Origin: a virus
Taxonomy: Duplodnaviria; Caudoviricetes
Virus record (IMG/VR): IMGVR_UViG_3300011977_000415
Coordinates: 41,365-105,364 of that record
Reading direction: 5' to 3' (one strand)
Length of the DNA stretch: 64,000 nt
Made by a program: the position numbers and the translations under genes. Within the stretch, counting starts at the first letter, position 1. Every line of letters begins with the position of its first letter. Under the pieces are notes generated by a model. That model worked only from the letters and a program-made list of their open reading frames with translations, ran no database searches and was not told where the DNA came from. Positions 11,848 to 61,273 of the stretch are shown here, in pieces.

Positions 11848-11874
11848 AAAACTCGCTGAAAATCAGCGAGTTTT
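11848..11874 (-). terminator. Original tRNA-Ser terminator displaced by prophage integration
   Basis: AAAACTCGCTGA-AAA-TCAGCGAGTTTT hairpin directly abutting the duplicated tRNA 3' end, with a T-tract on the minus strand. Confidence 0.7.
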
Positions 11875-11887
11875 GCGGAGAGAGAGG
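11873..11887 (+). repeat. att core (left copy), TTGCGGAGAGAGAGG
   Basis: Identical to 61259-61273, the 3' end of tRNA-Ser. Confidence 0.92.
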
Positions 11888-12005: not shown

Positions 12006-12054
12006 TCGTGTACATTTTCGTGTACGTGGTTTTTTGGGGCTTTTTTCGTGTACA
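12006..12054 (+). repeat. Integrase arm-type sites (3 x TCGTGTAC)
   Basis: TCGTGTACATTTTCGTGTAC at 12006-12025 is identical to 61207-61226; third copy at 12046-12054. Confidence 0.75.
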
Positions 12055-12057
12055 TTG

Positions 12058-13332
12058 TCATAAATCATTGAATCGCGACATCGCACGTTCTTTCAGTTCA
12101 TCAACAATCGCCATGTATGGTTTCATGGCTTTCATGTCGGCGTGTCCCGTCCATTTCATTATCACCTCGGACGGGATGCCAAGTTGCAACGCCGTAACAA
12201 CAAACGTGCGCCGCCCGCAATGGGTGGTGAGCAACGCCCATTTCGGCATCACTTGTTCGATTCGTTCGTTCCCTTGGAAATAAACAATCCGGATGGGTTC
12301 ATCAATTCCGCATACTTGCCCCAAGATTTTCAAACGGGCGTTCATTTTCACGTTCGATATTACAGGCAACGCCAAACCATCCTTGATGTCATCATCCTTG
12401 TATTTGTCCAATATCGCCTTGGCGTGGTCGTTCAATTCGATGCGCAACCCATCATGCGTTTTTTGCGTTACCACATCAAAAAAGCCATCCTTGATGTCGG
12501 TGCGTTTGAGTTTGGCAACATCCGAATATCGCAATCCGGTGAAGCAGCAGAACAAGAACACATCCCGGACGCGCGCAAGGCTTGATTGTGTGGGCGCGAA
12601 TTGCCATGATTCAAGGCGCGATATTTCATCACGGGTTAAGTAAATGATTTCCTTGTTCCCGTCCACGCCTTTCATCTTTGGTTTGAACGTGTCATGCAAA
12701 TTGCCGGGGTAATACCCTTTTTTCGCCGCCCATCGCAAAAACCACCGCAAGAACGAAAGGTTCTTGGAAATGGTGGTGTTCCGCAAATCCTTTCGGAGCA
12801 ATGAATCAACGTAACCTTGCAATTTGCGTTCGGTCAATGCCGGGAACGAAATATTTGGGTCGTATTCATAAAGATGTCGCCGGAGGGCGGCAAACTTTTC
12901 GTGTGTTGAATCCGTCCATTGATTACGTTTGCCCATTTCATCCGTGAATAGGTCGTAAACCTTGAAGAAGTTATCATTGCAAGATGGCAAATCGGCATTC
13001 GTTTTTGTCTTGCGTCCAACCATATCATTGAACAAATCCTTGATTTCGCCCGGCGTTGGTGTGCGCTTTTCAAGCAGTTCATAACGGGCGATGATTTCAT
13101 TCACCACCGATTGCCATTCATCAATGGTGCGGTTAATGGCATCGGCATTCGGTGATGATGGCAGCGCGCGCCCTGTGGCGGCATCCCAATCATCGGCATC
13201 AATGTTTTGCCCCAATGGAAAATCCAATGGGCGTTCGCCGTGCAACGTTATGCGCATACGGATGGCAAGGTTCTTTGATTGCCCGGCGGTGCGCTTGTGC
13301 AACAAGAATCTTATTGTTCGTTTGATGTGCAT
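12058..13332 (-). CDS. Tyrosine integrase (Bacteroidetes Arm-DNA-bind/SAM-like type)
   Basis: FTGLRYSD (R), HCGRRTF (HxxR), TGH and PY catalytic motifs; adjacent to att. Confidence 0.95.
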   Translation of the reverse strand: MHIKRTIRFLLHKRTAGQSKNLAIRMRITLHGERPLDFPLGQNIDADDWDAATGRALPSSPNADAINRTIDEWQSVVNEIIARYELLEKRTPTPGEIKDLFNDMVGRKTKTNADLPSCNDNFFKVYDLFTDEMGKRNQWTDSTHEKFAALRRHLYEYDPNISFPALTERKLQGYVDSLLRKDLRNTTISKNLSFLRWFLRWAAKKGYYPGNLHDTFKPKMKGVDGNKEIIYLTRDEISRLESWQFAPTQSSLARVRDVFLFCCFTGLRYSDVAKLKRTDIKDGFFDVVTQKTHDGLRIELNDHAKAILDKYKDDDIKDGLALPVISNVKMNARLKILGQVCGIDEPIRIVYFQGNERIEQVMPKWALLTTHCGRRTFVVTALQLGIPSEVIMKWTGHADMKAMKPYMAIVDELKERAMSRFNDL

Positions 13333-13613: not shown

Positions 13614-14176
13614 CGCGCGTGCGTGCGTATATTATCAATAATGATATGGAACACCGGGTAACTTATCAAATAGGCGTTATCGGCATTTATTTGCGCCGAA
13701 AGCGTGCCTTGTTGAAGTACATTGCCGGAGAAAACAACACGTTCAAGGTTGCCGATGCCCGCAAGCCTTTGGAAAACGGAATCGGTGGCGGCATCATCCG
13801 CCTTGCAATAATACGAAGCATCAAACGTTATTTGTGGCTTGGCATCAATTCCGTTGATGAGTTTGAACGAAACGTGTTTGTATGTGGTATCGTTCACCAC
13901 AACATCATCCACGCGCAAACCTTGCAACAGGGCATCGAACCCATCAGCACGACCATCCCGGAACAAGGATTGCAAATCGCGTTGGTAATCACCAAACAGT
14001 TGCGCTTCCTTTATGGGGTTAAATGTGGTGTCCGCAACCGCGCAATAATGCTGAATGATTGAATCCATTCGGCATTGCCTTTCGCATTCATGCGCCGGGC
14101 GTGGTGCGTTGTGTGTGCATGAGCATTGCAACACCAATGCAAATGCAGCCAAAAGAAGTTTCATTTGCCTTGCCAT
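13610..14176 (-). CDS. Putative lipoprotein in the lysogeny operon
   Basis: MKLLLAAFALVLQCSC signal peptide/lipobox; overlaps both neighbouring genes. Confidence 0.55.
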   Translation of the reverse strand: MARQMKLLLAAFALVLQCSCTHNAPRPAHECERQCRMDSIIQHYCAVADTTFNPIKEAQLFGDYQRDLQSLFRDGRADGFDALLQGLRVDDVVVNDTTYKHVSFKLINGIDAKPQITFDASYYCKADDAATDSVFQRLAGIGNLERVVFSGNVLQQGTLSAQINADNAYLISYPVFHIIIDNIRTHAR

Positions 14177-14357: not shown

Positions 14358-14759
14358 TTATCCTTGTTTAGTTAGATTATCAATGATTGCCAAAAGGCGG
14401 TCAATGTGTTCTTGCGCCTTTTGCAACGACAATTCCTTTGATGCAAGCAATTCAACCAACTTGGATAATTCGCTTTGCATCGCCACATCGGCGGCATTCT
14501 TGATGTTGTCGCCCATCACGTTGGCTTGTTCCACATTGCCACCATACATGACTGGGGAATCAATAATGCAATCCGAATAGAGTTCGGAAAGCCTTTGTTT
14601 TAGTTTATCCGAATAAGGGGAACGCCCCGTAATAACATCGGATAGATATGTTTTGGACACACCCAATTCTTTTGCAATGTCTTGTTGGGTCATCCTTTTC
14701 TTGTATTTAATGGTTTCAATCCATTCACGAATGGCGTTTTTTTCGTCTTTATTGCCCAT
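14358..14759 (-). CDS. Phage repressor (XRE HTH with coiled-coil C-terminus)
   Basis: MTQQDIAKELGVSKTYLSDVITGR; divergent from the early lytic operon. Confidence 0.8.
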   Translation of the reverse strand: MGNKDEKNAIREWIETIKYKKRMTQQDIAKELGVSKTYLSDVITGRSPYSDKLKQRLSELYSDCIIDSPVMYGGNVEQANVMGDNIKNAADVAMQSELSKLVELLASKELSLQKAQEHIDRLLAIIDNLTKQG

Positions 14760-16115: not shown

Positions 16116-16126
16116 AATTCGCAACA

Positions 16127-16330
16127 ATGGAAAAATTCATTTCAGTATTTCAAATCATCACCGCGATATTCATTTTCCTTTTCGCGGTTGGCACAACAAT
16201 CCGTTGCATCGTCAATGGAAGCGATGTTTTTTACATCATCATGTTCACGTTGATGGCGTTGGTCGGTCGTTCAATGTTACGTTACACGATTGCAGAATAC
16301 AAGGAGTTGAAGCATGGAAATAACAAGTAA
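16127..16330 (+). CDS. Small two-TM membrane protein
   Basis: Two hydrophobic stretches; start preceded by the TAAAATTCGCAACA motif. Confidence 0.65.
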   Translation: MEKFISVFQIITAIFIFLFAVGTTIRCIVNGSDVFYIIMFTLMALVGRSMLRYTIAEYKELKHGNNK

Positions 16331-16589: not shown

Positions 16590-16600
16590 AATTCGCAACA

Positions 16601-18559
16601 ATGAAACAAGTAATTTTGAAGTCCTTGACCCTTTGCAATTTCAAGGGTGAACAGGCAAGAACAACGAATTTCAATCCGGATGTTACCACCATTTCCGGCG
16701 GCAACGGATTGGGAAAATCACGCCATTTCGATGCGTTCATTTGGTTGCTATTTGGTAAGGATGCACGCGACCGAAAGGATTATGAAATCAAAACCCGCGT
16801 GAATGGTGAAGAATTGCACAAATGCGAGTGCAGCGTTACGGGCGTGGTTGATGTGGATGGTGAAACAATCACATTGAAGCGTTCATTCGTGGAAGATTGG
16901 GTGAAGCCACGCGGGCAAGTGGAACAAGTGTACAAGGGAAATCACACGGAATGTTGGTGGAATGATACCCCGGTGAACGTGTCGGAATACGACAAGCGCA
17001 TCCAATCAATCGTTGATTCATCGGTTTTCAAGATGATTACAAACCCGGCGTTTTTCGTGGGCATGAAATGGCAATTGCAGCGCGAACAGTTGTTCCAACT
17101 CGCGGGCGTTGTTACTGATGCCGAAATCGCGGCGGGCAACCCACAATTCGCCGTGTTGCTTGATGTCATTTCCGGCAAATCCCTTGCCGACCACAAAAAG
17201 GAATTGGCGGCACGAAAAAAGCGTTATACGGAAGAATTGAAGCAGATTCAACCGCGTATTGACCAAACCCAAAAGATGAAGCCCGAACCGGAAGATTTCG
17301 CCGCCATTGAAGCGCAAATTGCGGACATTGACAAGCAGATTGCCGAAATTGATGCACAAATTGCCGATATAAACACCGCCATTCGCAAGCAATACGAAGC
17401 GGAACAGGTAAGGCAAAACCGCGTGAATAGTCTTACCCAACAGGCACAACAAATCGTGTTCGATGCAAAATCATTGGCGCAAGAAGCGGCATTCACCGCC
17501 AATGCAAAACGCCGCGAACATGTGAATACCATCCATGTGTTGCAAGGTGATTTGGATGCAAAGCGTGGTGAAGTACAAAAGGCACAATTGGACATCGCAC
17601 GCATCAACCGCGACATCGAAAAGGCACGCGAAAAACAATCCACGTTGCGCGATGAATGGTTTGCCGAAAACGGCAAGGAATACGCCGGGGAAACAACGTG
17701 TCCGCATTGCGGGCAAGCCTTGCCGGATGATATGATTGCAAAAGCAAAGCAATTGTTTGACGATGCCAAGGTTGCCAAATGTGCCGAAATTACCAATAAG
17801 GGCAAGGAACTTGGCGCGATAATCGCCGGATATGAAAATGATGTTGCCGCCCGACAAGAAGCCATCAACATTGCCAAATCAAGCATCGAACAGTTGAACG
17901 CCGACATCAAGGCTTTGCAAACCGAACTTGACGCAATGCCCGAAAAGGCGGCATCCACCATCAACCCCGAAGAAATCCCGGCATGGGTGGAATTGCAAAA
18001 GCAGATTGCCGACATCAAGGCGACCATTTCAACCGACAACACGGGCGTTGATACAAGCGCATTGCAAACCGCCAAGGCTGACTTGAACAGGCAACGCAAC
18101 GAATTGTCCACACGCCTTGCAAAGCGTGGCGCAATCAAGCGTTGCGATGATGAAATCACCAACCTTGAAGCACGTGGCAAAGAGTTGTCGCAAGCCATCG
18201 CCGACATTGAACGCGATGAATACACGGTTGAACAATTCACCCGCGCCAAGATTGACGAATGCGAAAAGCGCATCAACGCCAAGTTCAAATTCGTAACATT
18301 CCGGTTGTTCGATTACACCTTAGATGGCAACCCGGTTGAAACGTGCATCCCGTTGTGTGATGGCGTGCCGTATGGCAGCGCGAACACCGCAAGCCAAGTG
18401 AATGCCGGATTGGACATCATCAACGCCTTATGTGGTTATTACGGCATTTGCGCGCCAATCTTCATTGACAACCGCGAATCGGTAAACAACATCATTCCCG
18501 TACAAAGTCAAATTATTAACCTTGTCGTAACCAACGACAACAAATTGACCGTATCATGA
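16601..18559 (+). CDS. Rad50/SbcC-like ABC ATPase with coiled coil and zinc hook
   Basis: GGNGLGKS Walker A, CPHC hook, IFIDNRES Walker B, long coiled coil. Confidence 0.85.
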   Translation: MKQVILKSLTLCNFKGEQARTTNFNPDVTTISGGNGLGKSRHFDAFIWLLFGKDARDRKDYEIKTRVNGEELHKCECSVTGVVDVDGETITLKRSFVEDWVKPRGQVEQVYKGNHTECWWNDTPVNVSEYDKRIQSIVDSSVFKMITNPAFFVGMKWQLQREQLFQLAGVVTDAEIAAGNPQFAVLLDVISGKSLADHKKELAARKKRYTEELKQIQPRIDQTQKMKPEPEDFAAIEAQIADIDKQIAEIDAQIADINTAIRKQYEAEQVRQNRVNSLTQQAQQIVFDAKSLAQEAAFTANAKRREHVNTIHVLQGDLDAKRGEVQKAQLDIARINRDIEKAREKQSTLRDEWFAENGKEYAGETTCPHCGQALPDDMIAKAKQLFDDAKVAKCAEITNKGKELGAIIAGYENDVAARQEAINIAKSSIEQLNADIKALQTELDAMPEKAASTINPEEIPAWVELQKQIADIKATISTDNTGVDTSALQTAKADLNRQRNELSTRLAKRGAIKRCDDEITNLEARGKELSQAIADIERDEYTVEQFTRAKIDECEKRINAKFKFVTFRLFDYTLDGNPVETCIPLCDGVPYGSANTASQVNAGLDIINALCGYYGICAPIFIDNRESVNNIIPVQSQIINLVVTNDNKLTVS

Positions 18560-22690: not shown

Positions 22691-22743
22691 CCCCAAAGCC
22701 CGCCACCTTGCACGCGCCGGGTGGTGGGCATAACATCGCAACA

Positions 22744-23517
22744 ATGGAAGATTTGAAAACAAGATTGGATGCCCTTGTACAACAATACAACGTGCCGCAA
22801 TTCGTGGGCAATGACCCGGTACAATTTCCCCGGATGTTTACCGCATTCCGTGATATTGAAATTGCCGCGTTCCTTGCATCCACAATAGCATGGGGCAACC
22901 GGAAGCAGATATTGAAAGGATGCCACAAGATGTTATTCGGCATCATGCACGGCAAACCATTTGAATATGTGATGAACGGCGAATGCGAATGCCTCAATCC
23001 GGACATCAACATCCACCGCACGTTCTTTGGGCGTGATTTGCAATATATGTGCCGCGGCTTGAAATGGGTGTACACTATGCACGGAACAATGGAAGATGTG
23101 TTCGCGTGTGAACTTGACCCGTGGAACGGCATTTCGTTTTTCAATGCGCTTATGGCGGACGGAAACGATGGCAGCACCAACAAGCATTTGTCCGACCCCG
23201 GACGCAAGACCAAAAGCCACAAGGGAAAATCGGCGTGCAAACGTATGCACTTGATGTTGCGTTGGCTTGTTCGCAAGGATGGCAATGTTGATTTGGGTGT
23301 GTGGCGAAGAATCCCCGAAAATCGGCTTATGATACCCTTGGATGTCCATGTTGGGCGTGTCGCCCGTGAATTGGGCTTGTTAGAGCGCAAACAGGATGAC
23401 CGGATGGCGGTTGAATTATTAACCGATAAATTACGCGAATATGACATCAACGACCCAATCCGTTACGATTTCGCATTGTTCGGGTATGGTGAACAACAAA
23501 AACATCAACGAGCATGA
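22744..23517 (+). CDS. TIGR02757/DUF2400-family protein (HhH glycosylase-like)
   Basis: NDPVQFP..DIEIAAFLASTIAWGNRKQI, SACKRMHLMLRWLVR..VDLGVW, IPLDVHV, DPIRYDFALFG. Confidence 0.85.
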   Translation: MEDLKTRLDALVQQYNVPQFVGNDPVQFPRMFTAFRDIEIAAFLASTIAWGNRKQILKGCHKMLFGIMHGKPFEYVMNGECECLNPDINIHRTFFGRDLQYMCRGLKWVYTMHGTMEDVFACELDPWNGISFFNALMADGNDGSTNKHLSDPGRKTKSHKGKSACKRMHLMLRWLVRKDGNVDLGVWRRIPENRLMIPLDVHVGRVARELGLLERKQDDRMAVELLTDKLREYDINDPIRYDFALFGYGEQQKHQRA

Positions 23518-34407: not shown

Positions 34408-36770
34408 TGGCAAAGCGTCAAAAGGTACAACGATTCAGCATACAAGGATGGGACATGCGGCATTACCGGGAAACCGAAGCGTATGCCCAAGCCGTGCAAT
34501 CACTTTACGACAAGGCGACATTGGCAATCCCCCGTGCCGCCGCCCGTGGCAAGATTGACCCGGACACGCCGTTTTCGTTTGACATGTACCCAAGTGTTCA
34601 AAAGGAGATGCAGCGCATCACCGAACAATTGGCGGAACGTGTAACGGTGGTTATCGAAACCGGGTCAAAGAAACAATGGTTGTTCGCGTGCGACAAGAAC
34701 GATGCGTTCATTTCGTCCATCATGGACACATCCAAGGTGAGCAAGGCACGATTGAAAAAGATGCAAGACCGCAACTTGGATGCCCTTGCAGCGTTCCAAG
34801 GTCGCAAGGTGGATGGCATGAACCTTTCGCAACGTGTGTGGAAATACGTTGGACAATTCAAAGACCAATTGGAAAACGCCCTTGATGTTGGATTGGGCGA
34901 GGGACGAAGCGCGGATGAACTTTCAAGAGATGTGCGCCAAAATCTAAACGACCCAAACCGCCTTTTCCGGCGCGTCCGGGATAAGCGGGGCAACCTTGTA
35001 TTGTCCAAACGTGCGGCGGCGTTCCATCCGGGACGTGGTGTTTATCGTTCATCGTACAAGAACGCGATGCGCCTTACCCGGTCGGAAATCAATATGGCAT
35101 ACCGGGAAAGCGATTGGCAGCGGTGGCAATCGTTGGATTTTGTCGTGGGGTTTGAAATACACCGAAGCAATCATGAGCCGTTGTGCAAGTGCGACACATG
35201 CGCAAAGTTGGTTGGACGTTACCCCAAGACATTCAAGTTCAAAGGGTGGCACCCGCAATGTATGTGTTACGCAACGCCTATTTTGATGGACGAAGAAACC
35301 TTTGATGAAAACGAGTTGGGCGACCTCAAAGCGGCATTGCGCGGAACACAATACAAGCCATTGCAAGCAAAGAATGTTGTTACCGATGTGCCGGACGAGT
35401 TCAAAAAGTGGGTGAAAGACCATATCGAAGCGCAAAAGAATTGGGGTTCGACCCCCTATTTCATCAAAGACAACTTCAAAGATGGCAAGTTGTCCGAGGG
35501 CTTGAAGATTACATTGCCAACGGTTCAGGTTCAAACCGATGTTCTTGCACCTTACCGGGCGCAAATCGAGCAAGCAAGACAACAGGCGACCAAGTGGGGA
35601 TTGTCCGTGCAACTTACGATGTTGGACAAGTATGTTGCCGACAAGGATATTGCAAGCATACAAAGCCGAATCGCCACCATTCAATCCAAAGCGGCACAAA
35701 TGGAACAAGCCGATGCGGATATTCGCCGCAAATGTGCCGAATGGGGCTTGTCCACATACATTCTTGACGAAGCAATGCGCAATCCTGATTCAAAGAATAT
35801 CTTGGCGAAAATGTCGGAGTTGGAAGATAGGTGCATAAATGCCGAAAGAGAACGAAAGGCGTTTATTTCCGATGCCAACGATGCAGTCAAGGAAGCAAGA
35901 AAATTGGGAATTGATGTTTCGGAAATGCTCAATTGGATTTCCATTGTATCGGATAAGCGAGAATGGACAATGAGCAAGACAAGAGCAAACGAGGTGTTGG
36001 AAAGTTTGAAAAGTGCGATTGGTTCTTTGAAAACAAAAGGCAATGACCCAATGGACGAATGGGCAAAACGCACCCAAGCCGCCGGAACAATCAACAAAAG
36101 CGCAAATGATGTCGATATTGAAAAGAGTTTCGGAATACAAAAGGGTGTTGATATGACCTTTGATGAAGCAAACGAGTTGCGAGGAAACCCGAATTTTGAA
36201 CCTCAATACATACCCGACCCCAACGGCATATATATACGCCGAAGCGACGGACAAAGGTTGAGCAAAAACCCGAAATACAAAAAGAAATTTACGGTTAATT
36301 GTCAATCTTGTGTTGTTGCTCACGAATTACGCCGCCGAGGTTTTGACGTACAAGCACAGGGAAACACAAAAGGTTCAACCCCCGAAATCCTTTCGTATCA
36401 TACCGAACTTGCTTGGTTGGACGCAAACGGGAATGCCCCAACATCAAGGGTTGCAAGGTCGCAATCGTGGGATTTGAAAGAGGAATTGACGCAATTCTAT
36501 GATTTGACAAAAGATGTCGGACGTTATCACCTTAAATGGAGCTGGGACAGGTCAAGAAGTGGTCATATTATCACGTGTGAACGTCTTTCCGATGGCACAT
36601 TACGCATTTACGACCCGCAGAATGGCGAATTTATCACCGACTTTGAAGCATACGCCAAAGGATTCAAAAGGGCGCGTGGTATTGAGGTTTTAAGGGTTGA
36701 TAATTTGCGGTTCAACGTGCTTTATTCGGGTGCATTGAAAGGCAACAAGGCAAGAAAAAAGGGGAAATAA
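34407..36770 (+). CDS. MuF/SPP1-gp7-like minor head protein with a C-terminal papain-fold toxin domain
   Basis: AMRLTRSEINMAY..CDTC..WHPQCMC (MuF); NCQSCV..GHII..YDPQ Cys-His-Asp triad. Confidence 0.85.
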   Translation: MAKRQKVQRFSIQGWDMRHYRETEAYAQAVQSLYDKATLAIPRAAARGKIDPDTPFSFDMYPSVQKEMQRITEQLAERVTVVIETGSKKQWLFACDKNDAFISSIMDTSKVSKARLKKMQDRNLDALAAFQGRKVDGMNLSQRVWKYVGQFKDQLENALDVGLGEGRSADELSRDVRQNLNDPNRLFRRVRDKRGNLVLSKRAAAFHPGRGVYRSSYKNAMRLTRSEINMAYRESDWQRWQSLDFVVGFEIHRSNHEPLCKCDTCAKLVGRYPKTFKFKGWHPQCMCYATPILMDEETFDENELGDLKAALRGTQYKPLQAKNVVTDVPDEFKKWVKDHIEAQKNWGSTPYFIKDNFKDGKLSEGLKITLPTVQVQTDVLAPYRAQIEQARQQATKWGLSVQLTMLDKYVADKDIASIQSRIATIQSKAAQMEQADADIRRKCAEWGLSTYILDEAMRNPDSKNILAKMSELEDRCINAERERKAFISDANDAVKEARKLGIDVSEMLNWISIVSDKREWTMSKTRANEVLESLKSAIGSLKTKGNDPMDEWAKRTQAAGTINKSANDVDIEKSFGIQKGVDMTFDEANELRGNPNFEPQYIPDPNGIYIRRSDGQRLSKNPKYKKKFTVNCQSCVVAHELRRRGFDVQAQGNTKGSTPEILSYHTELAWLDANGNAPTSRVARSQSWDLKEELTQFYDLTKDVGRYHLKWSWDRSRSGHIITCERLSDGTLRIYDPQNGEFITDFEAYAKGFKRARGIEVLRVDNLRFNVLYSGALKGNKARKKGK

Positions 36771-38057: not shown

Positions 38058-38699
38058 TTATTTAATACAACATTTATTTTGAAATCTTATTTCCAAGTCG
38101 AAAACACTTTTCCCCTTGCCTTTCATCGGTTCTTTTAATCTTGATTGCATTTCTTTCAGGCGTTCCCAATACTTGGGCAAGAAACGAAAGATGTTTTCAA
38201 GTTCTTCAAGGTTCTTATTTCGGCAACACCAACAGGACACCCGCGAAAGTATGTCATATAAACGAATGCCATCTTCAACCCAAAAGAACCCTTGTTCATA
38301 GCAATATGAAAGGCAATCTTGTTCAGTCATTCGCCATTCGTCCAATGGAAACACCTTGTTCCCGTTGCGTTCCTTTTCAAGTCGCTTGGGTTCATCGTGT
38401 GCAATGCCCACATATTCGATGCAGCCTTTGCAATATGCTTCAATTGCTTTCAGCTTTGCAGTTGTCCCCCAACGACAAACGCCACCCGATTGAAAATTGT
38501 GCTTCTTGCGAAATTCCGCTTGTTGTGGTGAAAAGCGGAAATAAGAAATGGCGTTTTGTACCATAGACACGATTTCAATTCCGGCAAGCGGACGGAATCG
38601 GTCGTAAATTGCCACCACGTCAGCATTCAGGACAACGCCTTTGTTGGCGATGATAATGCCCTTGATTTCATTGCGAATTTGTTTTGTAAGATTCTTCAT
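38058..38699 (-). CDS. Chimeric ORF: unknown N-terminus + C-terminal half of a PAPS-reductase-family protein
   Basis: GGVCRWGT..YVGIAHDEPKR..FPL..LY..SRVSCWCC; the N-terminal PP-loop (SGGKDS) is absent. Confidence 0.65.
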   Translation of the reverse strand: MKNLTKQIRNEIKGIIIANKGVVLNADVVAIYDRFRPLAGIEIVSMVQNAISYFRFSPQQAEFRKKHNFQSGGVCRWGTTAKLKAIEAYCKGCIEYVGIAHDEPKRLEKERNGNKVFPLDEWRMTEQDCLSYCYEQGFFWVEDGIRLYDILSRVSCWCCRNKNLEELENIFRFLPKYWERLKEMQSRLKEPMKGKGKSVFDLEIRFQNKCCIK

Positions 38700-38740
38700 T
38701 GTTGCGAAAGATTGTGGGCGGTTGCCCGCCCGGTTGTACA

Positions 38741-38947
38741 TTACCCACGAACAAATTTGACGGTTTCATTTTGCGTGGTTTGATTTTGGAACACCCAACC
38801 AAGGTCGTATGCACGTCCATCGTCCTTGCGATGGTATCGAAACCACTTGTCATATATGCCGTTTTTGCAATCGTTCATTCCTTGGTCGTAATCGTGTCGG
38901 GCTTGCTTGATTTCAGCTTTTGCCCGGTCGATGATTTCTTGTTGCAT
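38741..38947 (-). CDS. Hypothetical protein, first gene of the leftward operon
   Basis: Lies downstream of a leftward TATCTTTG element (38970-38977). Confidence 0.55.
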   Translation of the reverse strand: MQQEIIDRAKAEIKQARHDYDQGMNDCKNGIYDKWFRYHRKDDGRAYDLGWVFQNQTTQNETVKFVRG

Positions 38948-38948
38948 C

Positions 38949-39103
38949 GTGTGTTATAGTAACACACTGCAAAGATAGATGTTTTATTTAATAAAACAAG
39001 CATTTCGGCGAAAAAAATGCACTTGCAATGCAAAATTGTTGATAAGTTGGGCATATCTTGCCCGAAAAACGTGTATGTTTCACTATAAAACACACTACCT
39101 TTG
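38949..39103. promoter_or_regulatory. Divergent control region: leftward promoter with palindrome, and putative late promoter 2 (head/tail operon)
   Basis: Palindromes at 38949-38967 and 39075-39093; tandem repeat 39038-39059; -7 boxes at 38970-38977 (-) and 39096-39103 (+). Confidence 0.65.
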
Positions 39104-58731: not shown

Positions 58732-59337
58732 ATGATTATGACATCGAACATTCATTCAATACTTTCACTTGTCGGGAAGCATATCATGGGCGTGATGGGC
58801 GCGTGTGTGGCGATGATTCGTCCGACATTCCCTTTCATCCTTGTGTGTACCCTTGCCGTGCTTGCGGATTGTTACACGGCATGGTCGCTTTCCCGGCGCG
58901 TGAAGAAACGCTTTCCCGGTGCGAATGATGGAAAGTTCAAATCCAATTATGCCGGGCGCGTGTTCATCACCCTTATCAAGGTTTATTCCTTGACAATACT
59001 TGTGCATCTTATTGATGCAATGGTGTTCCCGGAAATCGCTTTGCATTTGCCGCAAGTGGTCGCCGGGGCGGTTTGTTTTTGGCAAATTTGGTCAATGCTT
59101 GAAAACGAATCAAGTTGCAAGGATGCCAAGTGGGCGAAGATTGCCCAACGCATAATGGTGGACAAGACGGAACGCCATTTCGACATTGATTTGCATGAAC
59201 TGAAAGAGGAACAGCCCGAACCACCACACATCGAAACCCCTTGTGGCAATGAAGTGTGCGCGTATCGTGGCAAGGTGCATTGCGACACAACGAAATGCCC
59301 ATCTTTCATAAAACCAAAGAACGATGGCGAGCATTGA
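58732..59337 (+). CDS. Holin
   Basis: Several TM segments, QIWSMLEN motif, directly upstream of the endolysin. Confidence 0.75.
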   Translation: MIMTSNIHSILSLVGKHIMGVMGACVAMIRPTFPFILVCTLAVLADCYTAWSLSRRVKKRFPGANDGKFKSNYAGRVFITLIKVYSLTILVHLIDAMVFPEIALHLPQVVAGAVCFWQIWSMLENESSCKDAKWAKIAQRIMVDKTERHFDIDLHELKEEQPEPPHIETPCGNEVCAYRGKVHCDTTKCPSFIKPKNDGEH

Positions 59338-59899
59338 CAAGTTGATTCCGTTCATCCTCAAATGGGAGGGTGGATTCGTGAACGACCCAACCGACCGGGG
59401 CGGCGCAACCAACAAAGGCGTAACAATAGCGACATACGAAGCATATTGCCGCCAAAAGGGGTTGCCCCGCCCCACGGTGGAGCAGTTGAAGAACATCCCG
59501 GATGCCCATTGGCGCGACATCATCAAAACCATGTTTTGGGATAAGTGGCACGCCGATGACATCCATTCCCAAAAGGTTGCCAACATCCTTGTGGATTGGG
59601 TTTGGTTATCCGGCGTTCATGGCATCAAGAAGCCACAAGCGTTGCTTGGTGTCAAGGCTGATGGCATCGTTGGCAACAAAACGCTTTCGGCGGTGAATTT
59701 CGCCGACCCGGAAGAATTATTCGCGGCGTTGTACAAGGAACGTGTGAAGTTCATCAACGCAATTGTGGCGCGTTCCGTTGCGGCGTATGAAAAGAAAATC
59801 GGTCGCCCGGCGACTGAAAAAGAGTTGTTGAAGCACACCCAAAAGCGATTTGCAAAAGGGTGGTTGAACAGGCTTGCAGAAATCAAAAAGTTGAATTGA
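59324..59899 (+). CDS. Endolysin, glycoside hydrolase family 108 with peptidoglycan-binding domain
   Basis: WEGGFVNDPTDRGGATNKGVT; ADGIVGNKTL; RFAKGWLNR. Confidence 0.92.
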   Translation: MASIDKLIPFILKWEGGFVNDPTDRGGATNKGVTIATYEAYCRQKGLPRPTVEQLKNIPDAHWRDIIKTMFWDKWHADDIHSQKVANILVDWVWLSGVHGIKKPQALLGVKADGIVGNKTLSAVNFADPEELFAALYKERVKFINAIVARSVAAYEKKIGRPATEKELLKHTQKRFAKGWLNRLAEIKKLN

Positions 59900-60383: not shown

Positions 60384-60940
60384 AGTATGTTTGTAATTTC
60401 ATTGCCGCGTTGGCGGCGTTGCTGATGGTGTCGTGCGCCACATCAAAGAAGATGGCAAAGGACACCGAACAAGTGCGTGTTGATAGTGTCGCCGAAAAGG
60501 TTGCCCATGTGGAAGATGTCGCCAAGATGGTGGACACAACCCGGAACGAACGGGAACAAATCATCATCACCGAAATCACGTTCTTTTCGCCGGACACAAC
60601 CGCCGGGACACCACCGCCCGAAATCACCATTGATGGAACGGGCAAGGTTACGGGTGGCGGCAACATCAAGGCGATAAAGCAAACCACCATTTCCAAGGTC
60701 AAGGAAGAAAAGGGCGAAAGCAAGGAAACGGCGAAAACCGAAACCAACAAGGACAATGCGACCATCCACAAACAACAGGAACAAACACATGTTGCCAAGG
60801 AAAGCAAGAACCCGGTGATTTGGTCGTATGTAATTGCCGCGTCAATTATTGCCGTTCTTGTATTGTTTTTGCGTTTCCGAACACCGATTTTCACATGGTT
60901 ACGCAACATTCTTGCCGCATTGCGCAAGATTTTGGATTAA
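60380..60940 (+). CDS. Putative unimolecular spanin
   Basis: N-terminal lipobox LLMVSC plus a C-terminal TM helix; last gene of the lysis cassette. Confidence 0.65.
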   Translation: MKYVCNFIAALAALLMVSCATSKKMAKDTEQVRVDSVAEKVAHVEDVAKMVDTTRNEREQIIITEITFFSPDTTAGTPPPEITIDGTGKVTGGGNIKAIKQTTISKVKEEKGESKETAKTETNKDNATIHKQQEQTHVAKESKNPVIWSYVIAASIIAVLVLFLRFRTPIFTWLRNILAALRKILD

Positions 60941-60959
60941 ATTCATTACCTTTGCACCC

Positions 60960-61036
60960 ACATTGTTGCGAAAGCCCCGGTTCATTGCCGGGGAACAATG
61001 TAGAAGCCCGGTTTTGTCGCCGGGCTTCATTCTTTT
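60960..61036 (+). ncRNA. Candidate phage small RNA ending in an intrinsic terminator
   Basis: TACCTTTG at 60947-60954; stems 60960-60967/60994-61001 and 60975-60980/60988-60993; terminator 61003-61028 plus T-tract. Confidence 0.5.
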
Positions 61037-61174
61037 GTTGTACACGATTACCACTTTTCTTGCAAAGTGTGGCAAAAAATGTATTATTTCGGGGTGAAAA
61101 ATATGTATTAAAAGGAAAATCGGTTGAATATCAATGTTTTAATTGTGGCAAAAAACAAAAAAACCGAAAAAGAA

Positions 61175-61207
61175 AAACGCCCGAAATCGGTGTGAAATCG
61201 GGCGTTT
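61175..61207 (-). terminator. Phage-supplied terminator for tRNA-Ser
   Basis: AAACGCCCGA..TCGGGCGTTT inverted repeat followed by T-tracts on the minus strand. Confidence 0.55.
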
Positions 61208-61227
61208 CGTGTACATTTTCGTGTACA
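61207..61227 (+). repeat. Integrase arm-type sites (2 x TCGTGTACA)
   Basis: 20-bp identity with 12006-12025. Confidence 0.75.
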
Positions 61228-61258: not shown

Positions 61259-61273
61259 TTGCGGAGAGAGAGG
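61259..61273 (+). repeat. att core (right copy)
   Basis: TTGCGGAGAGAGAGG, overlapping the tRNA 3' end. Confidence 0.92.

Follow-up and report, generated by a model that had tools for sequence, protein, structure and literature searches.

A prophage carries, between its final lysis gene and its attR arm, a compact unit in which a stretch near the 5' end is complementary to start codons of several distant genes of the same phage, which raises the question of whether the phage encodes a small RNA acting on its own early and accessory genes. The original prediction, made without database searches, had proposed a multi-target antisense small RNA (sRNA) at this locus. The analyses below make it likely that the unit is indeed a phage-encoded, trans-acting antisense sRNA gene that occludes the start codons of an early and accessory gene set, a reading inferred from the sequence alone and without transcript data. 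The window analyzed, 64,000 nucleotides long, forms the right-hand part of a provirus record in IMG/VR.

Genomic setting of the locus

The prophage covers ~49.4 kb of the window, from a 15-bp core (11873-11887) to its repeat (61259-61273), the latter being the 3' end of a minus-strand tRNA-Ser(tga) that is followed by the host MutS2 gene. At the left end, a rightward early operon lies beside the integrase and repressor genes. The lysis module occupies the right end and holds, in addition to the endolysin, a DUF5675 protein and a 186-aa ORF ending at 60940 (stop codon TAA, 60938-60940). The landmark genes are:

12058-13332, minus strand: tyrosine integrase, prophage left end
14358-14759, minus strand: HTH repressor, prophage left end
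59324-59899: GH108 endolysin, lysis module, right end

Exact-match scans found the sRNA element in assemblies of Prevotella, Prevotellaceae and other Bacteroidales, including a cultured strain, the isolate Prevotella sp. S7-1-8, as well as in a few MAGs with other labels. In S7-1-8, contig NZ_JRNC01000036.1 holds the prophage and the element occupies 13971-14072. The prophage belongs to Prevotella-type bacteria from gut or rumen.

A 20-bp direct repeat (TCGTGTAC twice, with an ATTT spacer) was also present at both prophage ends (12006-12025 and 61207-61226), together with an inverted TGTACACG at 61039-61046, directly after the RNA terminator; these end repeats and the inverted copy are likely integrase arm-type sites. 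A strong intrinsic terminator on the minus strand (61147-61207), made of an 11-bp GC hairpin (61175-61207) and then a long U-run, separates the tRNA/att core from the RNA gene and is kept in relatives. It would end integrase-side transcription in the circular phage.

Anatomy and predicted fold of the RNA unit

The unit (60947-61040) runs from promoter to terminator between the last lysis gene and the attR arm, and comprises a TAnnTTTG box, an RNA of ~77 nt with two hairpins, and a U-run. Its parts are:

60947-60954, plus strand: -7 promoter box TACCTTTG, Bacteroidota sigma-ABfr consensus TAnnTTTG
60960-61036, plus strand: predicted sRNA of ~77 nt, based on the fold and the covariance model, without transcript data
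60960-61001, plus strand: 5' domain, outer stem ACATTGTT/AACAATGT around hairpin 1
60960-60967, plus strand: ACATTGTT, 5' strand of the outer stem
60961-60974, plus strand: seed CATTGTTGCGAAAG, antisense to the start-codon tag
60968-60974, plus strand: GCGAAAG, unpaired part of the seed and candidate toehold, P(unpaired) 0.88-1.0
60975-60993, plus strand: hairpin 1 (CCCCGG, loop TTCATTG, CCGGGG)
60994-61001, plus strand: AACAATGT, 3' strand of the outer stem
61003-61040, plus strand: intrinsic terminator, a 9-10 bp hairpin and ATTCTTTTGTTG
61003-61028, plus strand: hairpin 2 (GAAGCCCGG/CCGGGCTTC), then ATTCTTTTGTTG to 61040

TAnnTTTG is the sigma-ABfr -7 consensus (PMC7366714), and the box begins 6 nt past the TAA stop of the last lysis-module ORF. 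The start of the sRNA was inferred 4-7 nt after the box and its end was placed in the U-run after hairpin 2. In the minimum free energy (MFE) fold (-39.7 kcal/mol, z = -5.9), an 8-bp outer stem pairs ACAUUGUU with AACAAUGU and GCGAAAG stays unpaired, so that 8 of the first 15 nt of the RNA are predicted to be paired. No conserved -33 TTTG was found at the canonical spacing in the window or in the relatives examined, which does not disqualify the promoter since the -33 element is weak or absent in other Bacteroidota.

All features named by the original prediction were present at the positions it gave. The box, the ~77 nt and the 9-bp terminator (a hairpin of 9-10 bp), the fold with GCGAAAG bulged out and the caveat that no clear -33 element was visible all held. 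A further caveat, that the hairpins may simply end the lysis mRNA, was partly right, as the sole terminator candidate between the lysis genes and the unit is a weak hairpin at 60910-60929. With no strong terminator ahead of the box, the late lysis mRNA would be expected to end in the unit as well. The weak hairpin itself (6 bp and TTTTGG) falls within the last codons of the final lysis ORF, upstream of the promoter, and a similar one occurs in relatives.

A start-codon tag on four genes of the window

The first 14 nt of the RNA are the exact antisense of a tag, CTTTCGCAACAATG, which ends in the start codon. Scored on the reverse complement of 60961-60974, the tag ends in the ATG of four window genes, with ORFs of 213, 67, 652 and 257 aa:

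38697-38710, minus strand: tag 14/14, ATG at 38699, PAPS-reductase-like gene (38058-38699, 213 aa), behind a GC hairpin
16118-16129, plus strand: tag 12/12, ATG at 16127, 67-aa early ORF
16592-16603, plus strand: tag 12/12, ATG of the SbcC/Rad50-like ATPase (16601-18559, 652 aa)
22736-22746, plus strand: tag 11/11, ATG of the DUF2400 gene (22744-23517, 257 aa), behind a GC hairpin

The predicted antisense matches of 14, 12, 12 and 11 nt to four AUGs were thus recovered exactly. The targets lie 22-45 kb from the RNA gene, on both strands and in different operons. Within the window alone, matches with up to three mismatches were not enriched (18 found vs 13.6 expected), and an exact 14-mer pair is not rare in 64 kb; the significance of the matches comes from all of them sitting on start codons, and from the evidence of the relatives.

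The 15-nt single-stranded 5' part of the RNA was ranked against both strands of the window by duplex energy. The four gene starts took four of the top five places among non-self sites (-17.4 to -20.6 kcal/mol; background, -6.5 ± 2.2), with -20.6 kcal/mol for 38699, -18.3 for 16127, -17.8 for 16601 and -17.4 for 22744; a ranking of targets had been proposed as a check of the original prediction, and its four genes passed it. Pairing remained favorable in terms of net cofold gain, which counts the opening of the RNA's own stem and of the target structure (ddG of -15.6, -14.9 and -10.0 kcal/mol for 38699, 16601 and 22744, respectively). Across the 109 starts of ORFs of at least 100 aa, the mean net gain was -2.1 ± 2.3 kcal/mol and the best untagged start reached -8.2 kcal/mol, the two best starts of all being tagged. 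For one relative (G323), the six best non-self sites were all ORF starts.

The fifth site of the window, CCTTTCGCAACGTG (34823-34837, plus strand; -17.5 kcal/mol), is internal to a large late gene, lacks a start codon and is probably a chance match. A ranking of 22-nt duplexes was dropped, being dominated by GC-rich matches to the hairpin stem.

Conservation and covariation of the unit

Approximately 45 related loci carry the unit, as established by an exact 19-mer scan, a covariance model (R1) and a loop-anchored scan. The exact 19-mer scan placed it in 15 viral contigs and 10 genome contigs, while the covariance model and the loop-anchored scan returned further, diverged copies; R1 detected the RNA in every RNA-bearing relative. 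The position was fixed in all lineages, with the last late gene upstream and the att arm downstream. The 95-nt element was 79-95% identical between lineages, compared to 62-82% for the upstream coding flank (93% in one close pair) and mostly 46-74% for the downstream att arm (90% in one pair), a comparison that is inflated because the first set was chosen on an exact seed match.

Other routes to relatives yielded little. The last lysis-module protein retrieved none in viral contigs, and a search with the DUF5675 neighbor gave four loci, one of which (L004) had an unrelated layout. A scan in which GCGAAAG was left free returned the known copies and unrelated chance matches, nothing else. The covariance-model search of 150 family and 150 genus genomes of a host recovered only two new copies and one weak hit, indicating that the element is rare per species.

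In the -7 box, the T, the A and the TTTG were kept in all aligned relatives, with CC, AC, TC, TT or AT at the two free positions, and the distance from box to seed varied. This pattern of fixed consensus letters with variable free positions and spacing fits a promoter better than a pairing partner.

Covariation supported the predicted fold. Among 19 diverse copies, 10 of the 23 pairs had changed on both sides, including 5 of the 6 pairs of hairpin 1 and 4 of the 9 terminator pairs; in the outer stem, one pair changed from A-U to U-A and one from U-A to U-G. Paired cells made up 95.7% in these copies, vs 84.6% in shuffles and 38-53% in slid controls. The alignment behind the pair counts was fitted to the covariance model. 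Some relatives have a clean T6 run in the terminator. Loops differed between lineages and no reading frame was conserved; given the loop indels and the compensatory stem changes, a conserved ORF is therefore excluded.

The seed behaved differently from the stems and loops: it was identical across lineages in which those had been replaced, and its core, CATTGTTGC, was invariant in all variants found. Only its end was less conserved (AAAG, AAG, AAAC or absent).

The loop of hairpin 1 was AGUUGCA in most lineages despite a replaced stem (relatives L009, L093, L169 and L191), and one variant repeats these letters in its terminator loop. The window has UUCAUUG instead in its hairpin 1 loop (60981-60987). 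Both loops echo parts of the seed (GUUGC and CAUUG), and a second contact site or a protein site is possible there. TGCAAC, the sequence opposite the AGUUGCA loop, was not enriched in tagged leaders (7%) over control leaders (3%).

Distribution of the tag in relatives and host genomes

All 17 RNA-bearing records examined carry tags, with 1-9 in each. The 12-mer TTCGCAACAATG, with at most one mismatch, occurred 5-10 times per record in five relatives vs 0-1 times for the reversed control, one copy per record being the RNA gene itself. Among the 32 non-RNA copies, 26 (~80%) opened an ORF of at least 50 aa, and the pattern was repeated in further records. Genes tagged in the window or in relatives encode the SbcC-like ATPase, the DUF2400 protein, a replication-initiator-like protein and small accessory ORFs of unknown function. 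The first gene behind a putatively operator-controlled promoter is tagged in many relatives. CGCAACA directly precedes the ATG in 50 of the 62 SbcC-like relatives whose gene start lies within the locus.

In five host genomes (2.2-2.8 Mb), 12 of the 13 exact 12-mers were located in the prophage region or contig. The tag is therefore no general host initiation signal.

A logo of 78 tagged starts showed ~90-100% conservation from -7 to +3 and ~55% from -8 to -10, with only A-rich noise beyond -11. This boundary corresponds to the point where the single strand of the RNA ends and hairpin 1 begins, and the less conserved end of the seed (AAAG) lies opposite the less conserved end of the tag.

Co-conservation and loss of seed and tag

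One relative, G312 (L226-L229), is a complete provirus that shares the att arm and the terminator and has an SbcC-like gene of 55% identity; neither the seed domain or RNA nor any tag was found in its record. It carries another leader, AGTAATACAACAATG, at three starts (42438, 40201, 19695 (minus)), one of them mismatched, and no antisense copy of that leader exists anywhere in the record. Shared leaders alone are therefore no proof of an RNA partner. In G311, a shortened seed accompanies just two tags. The only seed substitution found, a G to A opposite tag position -7, belongs to G322, whose variant RNA has a free 5' seed and whose single remaining tag does not match the change.

These three relatives point to co-conservation and co-loss of seed and tag. 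Covariation of seed and target motifs had been named as a check of the original prediction; the two are co-conserved, no compensatory seed-tag change was found, and the G322 variant is uncompensated.

Two further genomes, G309 and G310, were set aside as negative controls because their repeated AAGGAG motifs suggest a non-Bacteroidota host that uses Shine-Dalgarno sequences.

Proposed mechanism and alternative explanations

The idea of a multi-target antisense sRNA is thus supported by conservation, covariation, tag specificity, pairing energies and the G312 comparison. In the proposed mechanism, the host primary sigma factor would start transcription a few bases past the TAnnTTTG box, and hairpin 2 with its U-run would stop it, giving an RNA of ~77 nt whose synthesis is so far inferred. 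Its 14-nt 5' end would pair with positions -11 to +3 of several phage mRNAs, probably beginning at the unpaired GCGAAAG and then displacing the A/U-rich outer stem, and the resulting duplex over the start codon would block ribosome loading. Such occlusion is plausible in Bacteroidota because their mRNAs lack Shine-Dalgarno sites. That the effect is repression rather than activation is also an inference, as is its timing, whether in lysogeny, late in infection or against superinfecting relatives. Because the late lysis transcript should carry this sequence at its 3' end, an action in both settings, from the prophage and during late infection, would be possible.

For a trans-encoded sRNA, a conserved seed facing conserved sites in several distant mRNAs is expected, and was found; an own promoter and terminator without coding potential is also expected, and was met at the sequence level only. 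One point against this reading is that base pairing inside the RNA is predicted for half of the seed (ACAUUGUU), which is unusual for a 5' seed.

The closest alternative is that the anti-tag acts as antisense only within the 3' UTR of the late lysis mRNA, or as a fragment processed from it, which would leave the TAnnTTTG box inactive and imply a late shut-off of early genes instead of an RNA expressed from the prophage. In favor of this are the mere 6 nt between stop codon and box without a strong terminator, the missing conserved -33 element, the possibility that UUUGCA of the box pairs with UGCGAA of the seed in a read-through transcript, and the existence of 3'-UTR-derived sRNAs in Bacteroides such as FopS-14 (PMC11697453). 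This alternative is nevertheless unlikely, given that the consensus letters of the box (T, A and TTTG) never change, with variation at its free positions and in its spacing to the seed, and the two modes are not mutually exclusive. Less credible still is the view that the hairpins merely terminate or stabilize the lysis transcript and insulate the att/int region, the complementarity to start codons having no function. Hairpin 2 is indeed a canonical terminator ending the last late operon, the element adjoins the integrase arm-type sites, and an exact 14-mer pair is unremarkable in one 64-kb window. However, a terminator needs no invariant single-stranded 14-mer upstream, the seed is unchanged where stems and loops have been replaced, the tag is phage-specific and exceeds its control (5-10 vs 0-1 per genome), and G312 has retained the terminator yet lost the seed domain and the tags.

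It could also be argued that the locus is a minus-strand copy of the tag (hairpin, tag, ATG) and not a plus-strand RNA gene, whether as a relic gene start, a recombination linker of gene cassettes or the site of a tag-binding protein. The minus-strand layout, a GC hairpin and then CTTTCGCAACAATG, equals that of many tagged genes, and mosaic phages are known to have short conserved boundary sequences. Several observations make this explanation very unlikely. The minus-strand ORF after the ATG is only 1-31 aa long and not conserved, and what follows that ATG is complementary to the -7 box and conserved in its TAnnTTTG pattern. Both the box and a proper terminator are found on the plus strand, whereas the sequence after the hairpin on the minus strand is not U-rich; the strong minus-strand terminator at 61147-61207 lies upstream, so that transcription from the int and tRNA side would be stopped short of the locus, and a minus-strand transcript is improbable. 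Moreover, every lineage has the element at the same place, behind its last late gene, and the outer stem, which includes the seed, shows the compensatory A-U to U-A change.

Beyond the sRNA reading preferred here, a bolder one can be put forward, in which a genome-wide circuit of tags and one master RNA operates in temperate phages of Prevotella and other Bacteroidales: a fixed tag of 12-14 nt would mark genes for early, recombination/replication and accessory functions at their start codons, and a single constitutive prophage RNA would read them all. As many phages that have otherwise diverged carry the identical tag, a resident RNA would then also silence the early genes of incoming relatives. 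This extension is less likely than not. If true, it would amount to an RNA-based cross-immunity acting on translation, and to a widespread, undescribed layer of phage control in a phylum without Shine-Dalgarno-led initiation.

Comparison with known small RNAs

Post-transcriptional control in Bacteroidota is poorly known, and the locus offers a sequence-defined case in which one small RNA faces a tag on start codons in dozens of gut and rumen phages. The nearest counterparts are GibS and FopS of Bacteroides, shown experimentally to repress through 5' seed pairing across start codons (PMC7366714; PMC11697453). Like the phage RNA as predicted, these RNAs of Bacteroides thetaiotaomicron belong to a Bacteroidota host with sigma-ABfr-type promoters and mRNAs without Shine-Dalgarno sequences, and they combine a seed at the 5' end with a 3' terminator hairpin and pairing over the start codons of several targets. 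In contrast, the present RNA is phage-encoded and its proposed targets are genes of the phage itself; these carry a near-perfect tag of 11-14 nt where the natural sites of GibS and FopS are imperfect, and half of the seed is predicted to sit in a stem.

Among phage RNAs, c4 of P1 and P7 (immI) is an RNA of ~77 nt that pairs with ribosome-loading regions of its own mRNA, keeps an early function off and defines immunity specificity. It is cut from the very transcript that it regulates, at two sites of one operon, unlike the present unit, which is separate, lies at the far genome end and faces 4-9 dispersed tagged genes on both strands. The sar RNA of P22 and the OOP RNA of lambda are likewise small phage RNAs whose pairing blocks the translation or stability of lysis-lysogeny genes. 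They are transcribed opposite a single target with full complementarity, whereas the gene of the present RNA is distant from every proposed target, the tag being the only sequence that they have in common.

At the gathering threshold, Rfam matched only a tRNA in the whole window; at E ≤ 10, region 60850-61150 returned 15 families at chance level, with FopS, GibS and C4 not among them. The RNA would thus work like GibS/FopS and c4, yet it is a member of neither family by Rfam match. No description of a phage RNA of this kind in Bacteroidota was found in the literature searched, and Bacteroides is absent from a 2025 review that covers phage-derived small RNAs. If the sRNA reading is true, temperate Bacteroidales phages would place their early, recombination and accessory genes under an additional translational lock, which could be a basis of immunity among related phages and would provide a portable pair of tag and RNA for gene control in Prevotella and Bacteroides.

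Leaders of the tagged genes

Many tags are preceded, at a distance of 3-9 nt, by GC-rich hairpins without U-runs (in the window at 22700-22732 and, on the minus strand, 38716-38731; also in many relatives). A tagged gene thereby resembles a cassette consisting of hairpin, A-rich spacer, tag and ATG. On the minus strand, a TATCTTTG box and a perfect palindrome, GTGTTACTATAACAC, followed by a 68-aa ORF, were located at 38945-38977, where the box and palindrome head the leftward operon containing the tagged gene 38699. The same box and palindrome lie ahead of the first tagged gene in many relatives, so this arrangement is likely an operator-controlled promoter.
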